From IMG/VR virus record IMGVR_UViG_2850808358_000010: DNA of 11,607 bases, one strand, 5' to 3'. Position numbers: made by a program. Position 1 is the stretch's first letter. Each line of letters begins with the position of its first letter. Origin of the DNA: a virus. Lineage: Duplodnaviria > Heunggongvirae > Uroviricota > Caudoviricetes. Below, one piece after another: positions 2,931 through 8,900 of this stretch.

Positions 2931-5900
2931 GCCTGCTGAGCTAAGTCGGCGCTGGCCCACCACCGAGGACTCGAACCTCGCACCGTCAACTTAGAAGGTT
3001 GATGCTCTATCCGGATGAGCTAGTGGTGGTTGGTGGCCCTTGCTGGACTTGAACCAGCGACCTGGCGATTATGAGTCGCTCGCTCTGACCAACTGAGCTA
3101 AAGGGCCGGAGGCAGAATAATAACCATATGTCATCACATCTGCAAACTCATCTGACCACCAGCACGTTTAACGTCCTGTGCCGTTTCTGTGTGGCGTAGT
3201 AACCACTCTTAACAGGATATTCAACTTTTTACGATCGTAAAGTTTTCGGAAAAAATTTTTAAAACCGCATCAACCGCTCCACCAGTTGCTCTTTACGGGC
3301 AACGATCCACCCGTGTTGCTCCAGATAAAATTTAAACCGTTCCAGAGTACATACCATCGCATCGGCGGGTACCTTTTCCGTGAACTCAACCTGACCGTGT
3401 TTATCGAAGTGGCTCAGTAATGCGCATCCATCATTTTCGATAGATGTGTTTTGTGCCGCTGGTGGCTGTTTCTGGTTGAAATAACAGTCTTCCAGTTTTT
3501 CGAACACTTCCCACGCCTGATCGGTTTCGAGCATTTTGGCGTGACGGGCTGCGCCACGTTCTGTCCAGAGGATGAGGGAGCGAACGTTACGGGCAATTTT
3601 CACAGAAACTCTTAAAGAGTTTTCGTTCTTCAACTCTCGTAACGCATCACCTTCTATCAGGAAAAAATGTTTACCTTCTATAAACCGTTCTTTGTTTCGA
3701 TTGAAATTGTTTGTCAAACGCTGGCGCTCTGTTCCGTACAAATCAGCCAGCAGCTCTGTTGTCATGACAGGAAGATGGTTATGCGTAAGTGACGGAAGTT
3801 TTTCAATAGACGTGCGATTCATAGACATGTCCTTTCGAATATTTTGATTTACCCCTTTTGAGAGGGTGACCGGGCGCTCAAAACCGTCGAAAGTCGGCGG
3901 GCGTATTTCCATTGCTGGTATTGTATTAGCCGCACACCCGGTCATAAACCAAGAATTCTGGACACAAAAAAACCACATGGCTATCGGGTGTGGATACCGC
4001 TTTCGAGGTGTTTTGAGCACCGCGGGGAAATGTAAACTGCAAACCTGAAACTGTCAACACCGTCAGGTTCCAATCATCGGGTGGTGAGACGCACAGGGTT
4101 GGAACTACCGGGAAACCGACCGGCGAGCTTTTCAGCTCCCCCATGCGCCCCACCATAATTCAGATGTGCGCGTGCATACGACAATAAAAAACACGCTCGC
4201 GGCGTGTGTCTGTCGCGGTCTCTATCCGGGGTTCCAATCCCGACGCCAGATTTTGCTGGCGCGTGAGGAATATAGCCCCGGACAATGTGTCTGGTCAAGC
4301 ACCTACATAATTCGTTCTACGTATCTGTCCATCTCCAGCCTGATATCAAGCATCATCAACATGCCATCAATAACCCCTTCCGCTTTCTGCAGGCGCTTGC
4401 CAATACAGGTATCCGAACACCCATGTTTCCGTGCCAGACTCATAAAAGTCATTCCACCTACGTAATAATCCACCAGCAAATCGTGCAAATCCTGATTTTT
4501 CTTGTTCAACCGGGCCATACAGCCACAAATTATCATTGCATCATCATCAGAACACTGAGGGCGTGATTTCACTTTCGACGGAATTAACCCTTTAAAACCA
4601 GCAGCGATCGACGCCCAGGATACATCTTCATGAGTGTTTGCAGCCCAAGCCCCCCACCGTTCCATAACCTGCTGAATATCACGCGCCATCGTTATCACCT
4701 GTGATTTCGTAAATCTTCACGCCCAGTCGCCCACCAGGAACGAGCTGACCGCGCACAATATTGATTTCATCAAACTGCTCGTCGTCTATGAGTAGTCCGG
4801 CATGCGTCAGCGCATCCAGTGGTGCTTTCAGGATATTGTCCAGGTCACGACGGCGCTTATCCGGTGGCTCTGCAATAATCTTTATCGCCAGCCTTCCGGA
4901 CTAATGCCGATCAGTTAAGGATCAGTTGACCGATCCAGTGGCTGTGTAAGAATCCGGAAACGCTCACTCGTTTCCGGATTTTTTTATGCACATTGGACAG
5001 GCTCTTGATCTGGTATCCCGTTACGATTCTCTGCGTAACCCACTGACTTCTCTGGGGGATTACCTCGACCCCGAACTCATCTCTCGTTGCCTTGCCGAAT
5101 CAGGTACTGTAACGCTACGCAAGCGCCGTCTTCCCCTCGAAATGATGGTCTGGTGTATTGTTGGCATGGCGCTTGAGCGTAAATAACCTCTTCACCAGAT
5201 TGTGAATCGCCTGGACATCATGCTGCCGGGCAATCGCCCCTTCGTTGCCCCCAGTGCCGTTATTCAGGCCCGCCAGCGCCTGGGAAGTGAGGCTGTCCGC
5301 CGCGTGTTCACGAAAACAGCGCAGCTCTGGCATAACGCCACGCCGCATCCGCACTGGTGCGGCCTGACCCTGCTGGCCATCGATGGTGTGTTCTGGCGCA
5401 CACCGGATACACCAGAGAACGATGCAGCCTTCCCCCGCCAGACACATGCCGGGAACCCGGCGCTCTACCCGCAGGTCAAAATGGTCTGCCAGATGGAACT
5501 GACCAGCCATCTGCTGACGGCTGCAGCCTTCGGCACGATGAAGAACAGCGAAAATGAGCTTGCTGAGCAACTTATAGAACAAACCGGCGATAACACTCTG
5601 ACGTTAATGGATAAAGGTTATTACTCACTGGGACTGTTAAATGCCTGGAGCCTGGCGGGAGAACACCGCCACTGGATGATACCTCTCAGAAAGGGAGCGC
5701 AATATGAAGAGCTCAGAAAACTGGGTAAAGGCGATCATCTGGTGAAGCTGAAAACCAGCCCGCAGGCACGAAAAAAGTGGCCGGGACTGGGAAATGAAGT
5801 GACAGCCCGCCTGCTGACCGTGACGCGCAAAGGAAAAGTCTGCCATCTGCTGACGTCGATGACGGACGCCATGCGCTTCCCCGGAGGAGAAATGGCGGAT

Positions 5901-8900
5901 CTGTACAGTCATCGCTGGGAAATCGAACTGGGATACAGGGAGATAAAACAGACGATGCAACTGAGCAGGCTGACGCTGAGAAGTAAAAAGCCGGAGCTTG
6001 TGGAGCAAGAGCTGTGGGGTGTCTTACTGGCTTATAATCTGGTGAGATATCAGATGATTAAAATGGCGGAACATCTGAAAGGTTACTGGCCGAATCAACT
6101 GAGTTTCTCAGAATCATGCGGAATGGTGATGAGAATGCTGATGACATTGCAGGGCGTTTCACCGGGACGTATACCGGAGCTGATGCGCGATCTTGCAAGT
6201 ATGGGACAACTTGTGAAATTACCGACGAGAAGGGAAAGGGCCTTCCCGAGAGTGGTAAAGGAGAGGCCCTGGAAATACCCCACAGCCCCGAAAAAGAGCC
6301 AGTCAGTTGCTTAACTGACTGGCATTACAGCCTTCCGGACAGGTTTAATTTCAGCCGCTGCTGGCGAACAATTAGCGTCACATCACGGCGATAACGCTCA
6401 CCAACTTTTGATACAAAATATGTGCAGCCACGACGTCGCCAGTAAGTATTCACCGTCGGCGGATAAGGTAAAATAAACTCATGGCGCATCAGCGCAGCAC
6501 CTCCTGCACCATTTTTTCAAACTTTCCAACTTTGGTTTCCAGCTCTGCCACACAATCAACGAGCTCATCCACCGCTTTTTGTGCGCGATGTTTCGCCTGC
6601 ATCAGTTCCCTGAGCGCTGGCACCATATCCCGACGAATGGCATCTTTTGTTACACCTGTTTTTTCCAGTTGTTCCGCCTGTCGCAACATTTCCTGCGCGT
6701 GTTTACGCAATTGTTCAGGGGTAAAAGTCATTGTCTGGTTGTTCAAAAGAAACGCTCCATCTTACTGCTGTCGGTACGTGTATTGCTGTATCTGCGCGGC
6801 TGGGGCTGCCGCATTGGGGTGGAAAGAACCTGTGCGCTTTCCTGGTCCACAGGCAGAAAATGTCCGTTATAAAAACGCCGGTAAATCGTCCCCAGAGAAC
6901 CGTTACGTTGTTTCGTGATATTAATTTCTGCTATGCCTGTGGCCTGTGTATCCGGGTTGTACACTTCATCCCTGTAAAGCATCAGAATGATGTCTGCATC
7001 CGCCTCTATTTCTCCGGAATTTTTCAGGTCTGAGTTCATGGGACGTTTATTGGGTCTGGACTCCACACCGCGGGAGAGCTGGCTCAGCGCAATCAACGGA
7101 AAACCACCGGATTTTGCCAGGCCTTTAAGCCCCTTTGAGATTTCACCCACGGCAAGGTCATGACGCCCCGTGGTTCGGGTTTTTATCAGCCCGAGATAAT
7201 CAACCACCACCAGCGCCGTTTCCGGATGTTTAATCAGATGGTGTTTCGTTGTTGCGCATATCTCATCAATGGTCAGGTTCGCCTGGTCCACCATCCAGAT
7301 ATTGCGCCCGGTCATCCGCCCCACCCCTTGTGAGAAACGCGCCCAGTCTTCATCTTCAAAGTGAGCCACAGATTTCAGGCGTGATACTGGCATCCCTCCA
7401 GCCGCAGACACCATACGTTCACCAATCTGGATGTTCGCCATCTCCATGGTGAACAGAAGCACACCATGCCCCTGCTCAGTCACCTTGTCGATGATGTCCA
7501 GCGCAAGTTCGGTTTTCCCCATCGAAGGACGAGCCGCAATAAATACCAGGTCGCCGGGCTCCATGCCGCCTGTTTTTGCGTCCAGTTCATCAATACCGGT
7601 CATCAACGTCCTGGATTTCTCCAGTCCCTGACTCCGGCATTCAACACGCTCAACCACCTCCGGAAGCACATCATCAATATGTACCGACTGAATAACGCCC
7701 TTTTCCGTCGACAATGAGGCCATCATGTTCTGTGCATCCTTAAGAGCATCTTCAGCTGCTTCACAGGTATGCGCATCGCGTAATTTCTGTAATGCCTCGT
7801 TCAGTGTTTTTTCTGCATCACGCAGTGCGGCATTGCGTCGCAGTGCTGCAACATAGTGTTCCAGAGATGACTTCACCCAGGTTTTACGCCCGGTATCAGT
7901 AATCACCGGGGCAAGTTCTGGCATCTCATTGCACAACAGCACAGGATCAATCACGCCGGACACACGGGCCTGTCTGCAGATGCCTGTGTAGATATCCCGG
8001 TACGGTCGTACAGAAAAAACGTCCGCCGGTAGTGTGGTCAGAATATCCATCACTTCAGGATCTGCTCCGCGCAGAAAGAACGCGCCGATGACAGCGCCTT
8101 CAAGGTCATCGTTACGCCATACTGGAGTTGTCATGCAGCCACACCTCTGATACGAGAACGGTAACTGGGCCAGTTAAACGACAACCAGTTGCGTCCCCCG
8201 TCTGTGATCCTGTCGGCAATTCGGGGACTGATGAACGCCCACAACTCTTCCGGTGAGAGGTTACTGATCAGAATGGTGGGCAAGATACTTTCGTACCTGG
8301 CGTTGATAATTTCCTGCAAAATAGCCATTTCAGCCGCGCTGCCAAACTGAACGCCAACTTCGTTGAGGTAGCCTGAGTTTAACGGACACTCCTTCCTGAA
8401 ATAGAATGGCATCAGAAGGAGCTAATAATGAGCAGAAAAACCCAACGTTACTCTAAAGAGTTCAAAGCCGAAGCTGTCAGAACGGTTCTTGAAAATCAAC
8501 TTTCGATCAGTGAAGGCGCTTCCCGATTATCCCTTCCTGAAGGCACTTTAGGACAATGGGTTACCGCCGCCAGAAAAGGGCTCGGTACTCCTGGTTCCCG
8601 CACGGTGGCTGAACTGGAATCTGAAATTCTGCAACTGCGTAAGGCGTTAAATGAAGCTCGCCTTGAGCGAGATATATTAAAAAAAGCAACAGCGTATTTT
8701 GCACAGGAGTCGCTGAAAAATACGCGTTAATCGAACAATGGCGACAACAATTTCCCATTGAAGCGATGTGTCAGGTATTTGGTGTATCCAGGAGCGGTTA
8801 TTACAACCGGGTACAGCATGAACCCTCAGACAGAAAACAAAGTGATGAGCGGCTAAAACTGGAGATTAAGGTGGCACATATCCGCACTCGCGAAACATAT

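Follow-up and report, generated by a model that had tools for sequence, protein, structure and literature searches.

IS4 is one of the textbook insertion sequences, the destruction of prophage genes by such insertions is commonplace in Shigella, and the rusA gene of a prophage remnant is dispensable. In the DLP12 prophage of Escherichia coli K-12, rusA is silent unless activated by an insertion sequence upstream, and in the alleles rus-1 and rus-2 the gene (rus or rusA) was reportedly switched on by upstream insertions of IS2 or IS10. The locus considered here is an IS4 copy within rusA, contained in a window of 11,607 nucleotides (the whole stretch of DNA that was analysed; IMG/VR virus record IMGVR_UViG_2850808358_000010) whose source is the chromosome of Shigella boydii ATCC 35964 (CP026877.1, 5,129,092 bp; NCBI assembly GCA_002950035.1). 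The site is in the nin region of a decayed lambdoid prophage of that strain, and it shares with DLP12 rus/rusA the gene for a RusA-family Holliday junction resolvase, such a nin-region setting just upstream of the antiterminator gene Q, and the involvement of an insertion sequence. It differs in that the upstream insertions in DLP12 activate a silent gene, whereas here IS4 interrupts the coding sequence itself, past codon 54 and ahead of the catalytic aspartates, and abolishes the gene. The element itself shares with IS4 of E. coli K-12 (InsG), the type element of the IS4 family and subgroup, a length of 1426 bp, imperfect 18-bp terminal repeats, the end signature and a 13-bp target duplication (PMC2266710), together with 99.6-99.8% nucleotide identity and a DDE domain and YREK motif in the same frame. 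It differs from the K-12 element in a GAA to TAA change at Glu67 of the transposase, in a C at position 68 that removes a TTG start, and in Ala391Val at position 1256. Entry of IS4 into a prophage rusA is an ordinary event involving a known element, and the pattern across the family of copies is a modest curiosity; the main outcome is a correction of scope, namely that the stop is a family-wide allele in this genome and not a private lesion of one copy, with intact transposase genes found only on the virulence plasmid.

The IS4 copy in rusA occupies positions 4902-6327 on the plus strand, its transposase frame opposite to rusA, as delimited by its inverted repeats, its target duplication and the empty site in relatives. 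The frame begins at ATG 4986 (MHIGQ...ALERK), is broken by TAA at 5184-5186 (ALERK-stop-PLHQ) and is then open to the natural stop at 6312-6314, so that the list of open reading frames and their translation give an N-terminal fragment of 66 codons followed by the nonsense codon (4986-5186, plus strand) and the rest of the frame with the DDE domain and YREK motif (5187-6314, plus strand). Compared with the closest E. coli copy, the element differs only at positions 68 (T to C), 283 (G to T) and 1256 (C to T, Ala391Val), the change at 283 being the one that turns the GAA of Glu67 into TAA; two intact plasmid copies likewise have GAA. The C at position 68 abolishes the TTG that NCBI PGAP uses as a start in other copies. 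The original prediction had reported the single in-frame TAA, which is plainly seen in the translation, and had allowed that a reference IS4 might carry a natural stop at this point. Alignment to the reference instead gives a single-base change from a sense codon, with G at the stop position in about 99.9% of the E. coli records that hold the stretch; of 2,566 E. coli records and 231 plasmids, only 3 and 4, respectively, perfectly match a 57-base probe centred on the stop. Judged from these comparisons, TAA at codon 67 is not the natural state of IS4. The rusA copy is unable to make full-length transposase, its own gene being cut after 66 codons, and by-eye inspection of the surroundings (CGT AAA TAA CCT) recognised no read-through or frameshift signals.

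A look-up of the 66-residue fragment led to ten places in the ATCC 35964 genome, all with T at position 283 in the alignment, and one more copy was found later. Among the 13 IS4 copies examined, at least 11 carry TAA (nine chromosomal, two on the plasmid), a count that is a lower bound with the chromosome read in part, and eight of the nine chromosomal TAA copies have perfect 12-14 bp duplications of their own at different sites. The 166.5-kb virulence plasmid (CP026876.1) was read whole as an unbiased sample and has four IS4 copies covering position 283, two with TAA and two with GAA, both of the latter with an uninterrupted transposase frame of 442 codons. Across its 1426 bases, the GAA copy at 70264-71689 differs from the rusA copy at position 283 alone, and the protein encoded by the GAA copy at about 129.7-131.1 kb matches that of the E. 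coli O121 copy exactly. None of three intact transposase sequences was found on the ATCC 35964 chromosome, the longest contig with them being 5,100,100 bp and so shorter than the 5,129,092-bp chromosome, and within this assembly the plasmid alone carries the intact Ala391Val form. Intact copies found only on the virulence plasmid are in line with a study that counts IS4 among five insertion sequences expanded throughout Shigella, its variants there being apparently introduced via that plasmid (PMC7373316).

These counts overturn the assumption in the original prediction that the stop belonged to the rusA copy alone, since TAA is the majority IS4 allele of the genome, in at least 11 copies and on at least four haplotype backgrounds. 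Had the stop arisen in the rusA copy after insertion, leaving a solitary immobile relic, the copy would be expected to differ from an intact one only at the stop base, and from the intact plasmid copy it does so differ; the identical G to T change is nevertheless present in at least ten other copies at other sites of the same genome, and an identical independent mutation is far less likely than inheritance or conversion, which makes a private origin hardly credible. That the G to T change recurred independently in eleven copies of a single genome was also considered, and was rejected as far too improbable. The associated claim that the copy is probably immobile unless complemented in trans is half sustained: its own transposase is broken, but a source of intact transposase is in fact present on the plasmid. 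For annotators, interrupted transposase genes of this kind need not represent separate events of pseudogenisation.

Comparison of haplotypes among 11 S. boydii copies and one E. coli copy gave eleven variable positions. All four combinations of alleles are found when position 283 is paired with 68, 420 or 1256, so that 283 is phylogenetically incompatible with these three sites, nearly all other pairs of positions being compatible. The polymorphism at 1256 occurs also with GAA in other Shigella genomes, and because it is older than the stop, TAA must have crossed haplotype backgrounds at least once. The flanks of the copies tell of further exchange: five of the 13 lack a target duplication and have flanks that are shared, some of them inverted. 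Three plasmid copies and one chromosomal copy, of four different haplotypes, share the left flank AAATTCATAAGGAAAATTAGGCCGCCGGGG of one old site by IS66 genes, and the fourth plasmid copy has the right flank of that site on both sides, in inverted orientation. Such shared and inverted flanks indicate, as far as sequence arrangement can, duplications, inversions and plasmid-chromosome exchange through IS4. Over 3.3 kb, the IS4 insertion between glpD and glgP is colinear at 99.58% with one in another Shigella assembly that has an identical 12-bp duplication, but it is TAA here and GAA there, and at the pdxY-gst site one flank is shared between strains in like manner. These observations are read as evidence that homologous exchange between copies moves the TAA allele about.

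The best overall explanation, to which a probability of about 0.8 is assigned, is that an ordinary IS4 lies in rusA and carries a family-wide TAA allele spread by exchange between copies, by mobilisation in trans, or by both. A full-length IS4 transposed into rusA codons 50-54 and produced the 13-bp duplication, and by this account the TAA allele would have passed from copy to copy chiefly through homologous exchange, whether gene conversion or recombination, with mobilisation of TAA copies in trans by the plasmid-encoded transposase as the likely second contributor. Both processes probably contribute; that conversion was the dominant one has about an even chance of being right. The rusA copy and the plasmid copy at 70264-71689 are probably sister copies, since no other copy examined has their C at position 68 and the stop base is the single difference between them. 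With both ends intact and two intact transposase genes in the same cell, the rusA copy would be non-autonomous yet movable in trans. It would in this respect resemble non-autonomous elements moved in trans, such as defective insertion sequences and miniature inverted-repeat elements, which also combine intact ends and the lack of a working transposase with an intact relative in the cell; compared with these, it is of full length and one base from autonomy, a candidate for trans-mobilisation. The strain offers a compact natural case of a matter still debated, namely whether near-identical insertion sequence copies result from recent transposition, from trans-mobilisation of defective copies or from gene conversion.

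Mobilisation in trans may instead have been dominant, the stop having arisen once and early, with defective copies then multiplied by the plasmid transposase and conversion needed only for the few incompatible haplotypes. The eight chromosomal TAA copies at different sites, each with its own perfect duplication, are what such a history would leave behind, intact transposase genes are co-resident, and the most parsimonious tree of the other variable sites roots nearly all copies in TAA. The IS4-family transposases of IS10 and IS50 act preferentially in cis, however, and given such a preference the intact copies should have out-multiplied the defective ones, yet no intact copy was found on the chromosome, which was read in part. 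The exchange events at position 283 are needed in any case, and another strain has a GAA insertion that shares both site and duplication with a TAA copy here. Dominance of trans-mobilisation can be entertained tentatively on this balance.

Several points weigh against spread mainly by exchange, or against the sampling and assembly on which that reading draws. The lineage-specific rusA insertion itself carries TAA, which fits trans-mobilisation equally well, and the pair formed by the window copy and its plasmid sister needs one exchange event under either conversion or trans-mobilisation, so that the data do not separate the two. IS4 has a strong target preference, so that shared sites may be independent hits, which would weaken the case for conversion in situ. 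The look-up with the 66-residue fragment is biased towards TAA, leaving the four plasmid copies, two TAA and two GAA, as the only unbiased sample, and the chromosome, which was only partly read, may carry a GAA copy that has an amino-acid change of its own. A 1-bp deletion within a run of five C is common to three copies, and a second deletion, also in a C run, is found in one (IS4 positions 531 and 1344); these may be real shared frameshifts or homopolymer errors of long reads; the plasmid record, finally, is in PLSDB only under its GenBank accession, CP026876.1. Seeming homopolymer indels and the standing of the plasmid record would also favour the view that TAA itself is an error of sequencing or assembly, introduced by consensus calling or polishing across repeats. 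The change is a substitution and not a homopolymer indel, however, and in an identical sequence context this one assembly has both bases, G in two copies and T in eleven, which argues against systematic error or repeat-wide polishing. The exact 66-residue product is moreover present in Logan and ENA assemblies, on 30 contigs and in 55 indexed blocks, the contigs being seen as records only. An assembly error is very unlikely.

The same change of codon 67 from GAA to TAA is present in an IS4 on the E. coli plasmid pAL.H8 (NZ_CP082350.1, 71966-73294), 97.2% identical and annotated 'internal stop'. Outside Shigella the stop is carried by E. coli plasmids: pAL.H8, to which inspection was confined, and a further three or four that are similar. 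The pAL.H8 stop is apparently an independent recurrence on a different IS4 lineage, an independent G to T change being the simplest reading for so divergent an element, with a hot spot or short-tract conversion as further possibilities.

Recurrence of the stop, and its standing as the majority allele in ATCC 35964, raise the question of whether it is bypassed or useful, either through read-through or restart that gives an active transposase or through truncated products that inhibit IS4 in the manner of Inh of Tn5. Inh, which inhibits Tn5, is the Tn5/IS50 transposase without its N-terminal 55 residues, made from its own start site in the wild-type element. Possible restart codons in IS4, GTG 5202 and ATG 5220, lie 16 and 34 nt past the stop, and gene callers give a 364-residue product from ATG 5220; the putative restart product resembles Inh as an IS4-family transposase without about 72-78 N-terminal residues and differs from it in that it would depend on restart after a nonsense mutation. 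Among the stop codons of E. coli, however, TAA is the most efficient, its surroundings show no evident slippery or recoding signal, and the restart product, without its first 72-78 residues, would be without the N-terminal part of Nterm_IS4 (residues 18-109). The N-terminal region of Tn5 transposase binds the element ends, and by analogy with Tn5 the restart protein would be inactive or inhibitory. The role as inhibitor is drawn by analogy only, and among the Shigella plasmids searched the allele is in only this one strain, so that bypass or usefulness of the stop appears quite unlikely. A related proposal, that Glu67-stop might be a self-limiting form of IS4 that damps transposition and was driven to majority by biased gene conversion or host-level selection, is a speculation, again by analogy, with little chance of being right; if it were true, the same nonsense change in the 97%-identical IS4 lineage of E. 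coli plasmids would be convergence. A second stop allele had seemed to be present in the S. sonnei draft FTSZ01000014.1 as a 364-residue 'IS4 ORF' (open reading frame) and was rejected, the frame being a scaffold join of 16S rRNA, a single N and IS4 interior. This spurious frame is identical to the post-stop product here and constitutes a database trap.

Other TAA copies have histories of their own. The copy at about 3.415-3.421 Mb of CP026877.1 is interrupted by an 827-bp insert with a Y2-type (IS91-family) transposase fragment and keeps a perfect 12-bp duplication.

The identity of the element in rusA can be judged against published features of the IS4 subgroup, which comprise a size of 1400-1650 bp, the end signature -AATR--------WTW, a target duplication of 10-13 bp, and a DDE domain with a Y(2)R(3)E(6)K motif (PMC2266710). 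The copy is 1426 bp long and bounded by terminal inverted repeats of 18 nt, both on the plus strand, at 4902-4919 (left, TAATGCCGATCAGTTAAG) and 6310-6327 (right, paired with the left end), 16 of whose 18 bases are complementary (89%). The signature is found at the left end in TAATGCCGATCAGTTAAGGA and at the right end, read as the reverse complement, in TAATGCCAGTCAGTTAAGCA. Beyond the repeats lie the two copies of the target duplication, CAGCCTTCCGGAC, at 4889-4901 and 6328-6340, a direct repeat that is 100% identical over 13 bp and present only once where relatives have the empty site; for any one fixed pair of positions, all 13 bases would match by chance with a probability of about 4^-13. 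With the stop repaired, the 442-residue protein has Pfam Nterm_IS4 at residues 18-109 (E = 3.1e-33) and DDE_Tnp_1 at residues 126-352 (E = 7.8e-32), and the YREK motif at residues 307-321. The best match, full length at 99.8% identity, is to an E. coli annotation 'IS4-like element IS4 family transposase', from which the copy differs at 3 of 1426 bases and the repaired protein at one residue, and copies so annotated as IS4 were matched in 2,480 of the 5,426 complete E. coli genomes. The single uninterrupted transposase frame of an intact element is lacking, TAA standing at codon 67. The element is a true, full-length IS4 with every sequence feature of the subgroup except an intact frame, a defective copy that is IS4 by sequence.

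Both ends of the element contain signals that may affect expression. Inside the left end (region 4926-4986) there is a promoter-like site, TTGACC, 16 nt, AAGAAT, with TG, and at 4948-4983 on the plus strand a strong hairpin followed by a run of seven T (-24.8 kcal/mol, z = -6.25) that ends 2 nt before the transposase ATG. The hairpin looks like an inward-facing terminator or a block to translation at the left end, and the arrangement of promoter-like site and hairpin would restrict read-in transcription and the start of translation. In the right end, a terminator scan found a hairpin with an 11-bp stem and TCTTTTT at 6298-6323 (-19.1 kcal/mol, z = -3.83) on the minus strand, that is, in the direction of rusA transcription.

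Support for the insertion event comes from relatives in which rusA is whole. The restored RusA of 123 residues is 100% identical to an S. boydii RusA recorded on 22 contigs, and its look-up led to six further assemblies in which this prophage remnant recurs with its IS600 scars and its neighbours. Against S. boydii CP026845.1 and four more assemblies the two halves of the window align at 99.8%, the aligned spans being 6328-11607 and 1-4901 in CP026845.1 and JARKNR010000001.1; because the two half-window alignments overlap by exactly 13 bp, the 13-mer CAGCCTTCCGGAC is single in these relatives. Two intact E. coli rusA alleles also hold the 13-mer stretch once, one identically and one with a single mismatch. 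The insertion is lineage-specific, since close relatives carry the orthologous empty site with rusA intact, and no IS4 in rusA was found among 5,426 complete E. coli genomes or in the phage collection. In the short-read contig ERR200316, which five other sequencing runs share, the 54-codon rusA fragment is followed immediately by the IS4 right end, in which the contig terminates, and because the junction is found in these five samples the insertion predates the ATCC 35964 isolate. The IS600 scars occur also in relatives that lack the IS4 insertion, and being so shared they are older than it. On this sequence evidence, the IS4 insertion in rusA is real and lineage-specific, younger than the IS600 scars and older than the isolate. 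The original prediction had described a complete IS4 at these boundaries, flanked by identical 13-mers, whose removal with one duplicate restores a rusA frame of 123 codons, and had pointed to alleles in related prophages for comparison; boundaries, repeats, duplication and restored frame were all recovered, and the alleles compared have an intact gene with the 13-mer once and flanks of 99.8% identity. Its view of a clean, fairly recent insertion holds as regards cleanness, borne out by the empty site and the restriction to one lineage, and has to be qualified as regards recency by the junction in five samples.

The minus-strand join of 6489-6341 to 4901-4679 gives 372 nt, or 123 codons and a stop, and the product contains RRRDLDN. 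It matches Pfam RusA (PF05866) with E = 3.3e-14 and 54 bits (cut-off 22.8) over profile positions 1-110 of 124. Its acidic residues D69 and D71 lie in RRRDLDN and D90 in LIDDE; these are residues that we take, by our own alignment, to correspond to the active-site Asp70, Asp72 and Asp91 of E. coli RusA. IS4 splits the gene after codon 54, the target duplication spanning codons 50-54. The 5' fragment, codons 1-54, lies at 6328-6489 on the minus strand, within an open reading frame at 6325-6489 that is closed at once by a TAA (6327-6325) made of terminal IS4 bases. The 3' fragment, from codon 51 to the stop at 4679-4901 on the minus strand, was identified from the reconstruction, the Pfam match and the intact alleles; it contains the RRRDLDN region and is without a start codon of its own. 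Because all catalytic aspartates sit on the fragment that cannot start translation by itself, RusA is null. Assembly GCA_002950035.1 has records of both truncated products, that of rusA and that of the transposase. To judge from the right-end hairpin and its TCTTTTT, which face rusA transcription, and from the overlap of the Q ATG with the rusA stop (ATGGCGCGTGA), the insertion is probably polar on the 3' part of rusA and on Q, with the hairpin as the putative terminator. Loss of rusA is probably without phenotype, by analogy with the silent gene of DLP12 and because the remnant is without an early region and its promoters.

A literature search found nothing usable on ATCC 35964 or on the target specificity of IS4. 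In this genome the IS4 copies are inserted between genes, in the loops of hairpins that resemble terminators; such sites lie, for example, downstream of rpoD and of metK and between rpsQ and rplN. Reconstruction of 15 empty sites yields the consensus A.AAAA.G....CC....GG.G.CGTTTTT, and about half of these sites fold far better than shuffled sequences (z down to -5.9). The rusA site has the CC....GG core and the AT-rich arms, but no real hairpin (z = +0.47), and looks like a sequence mimic of the preferred IS4 target.

The surrounding prophage is short, heavily decayed and lambdoid, without any early regulatory region; the plasmid record of ATCC 35964 gives the origin of the isolate as faeces of a dysentery patient. 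Along the window, an IS600 end (1-367) comes first, followed by genes for HNH, Rz, lysozyme and holin. Between the holin gene and an ORF6N gene lie four tandem tRNA genes (Gly-tcc, Thr-tgt, Arg-tct, Met-cat) at 2797-3107 on the minus strand, a location downstream of Q; such clusters are common in lambdoid and Stx-type prophages. The ORF6N gene is followed by Q (4303-4689, minus strand), known from the list of open reading frames and as a 128-residue gene call with Pfam Phage_antitermQ in the source record. After rusA and IS4 come an 85-residue gene and a gene for a DnaB-type helicase, and then a second IS600 (8364-9627) that cuts the helicase-loader gene and leaves a stump, with a phage integrase and an autotransporter fragment directly after it. 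The two IS600 copies bound and cut the prophage remnant, and truncation of the loader gene brings the integrase directly behind.

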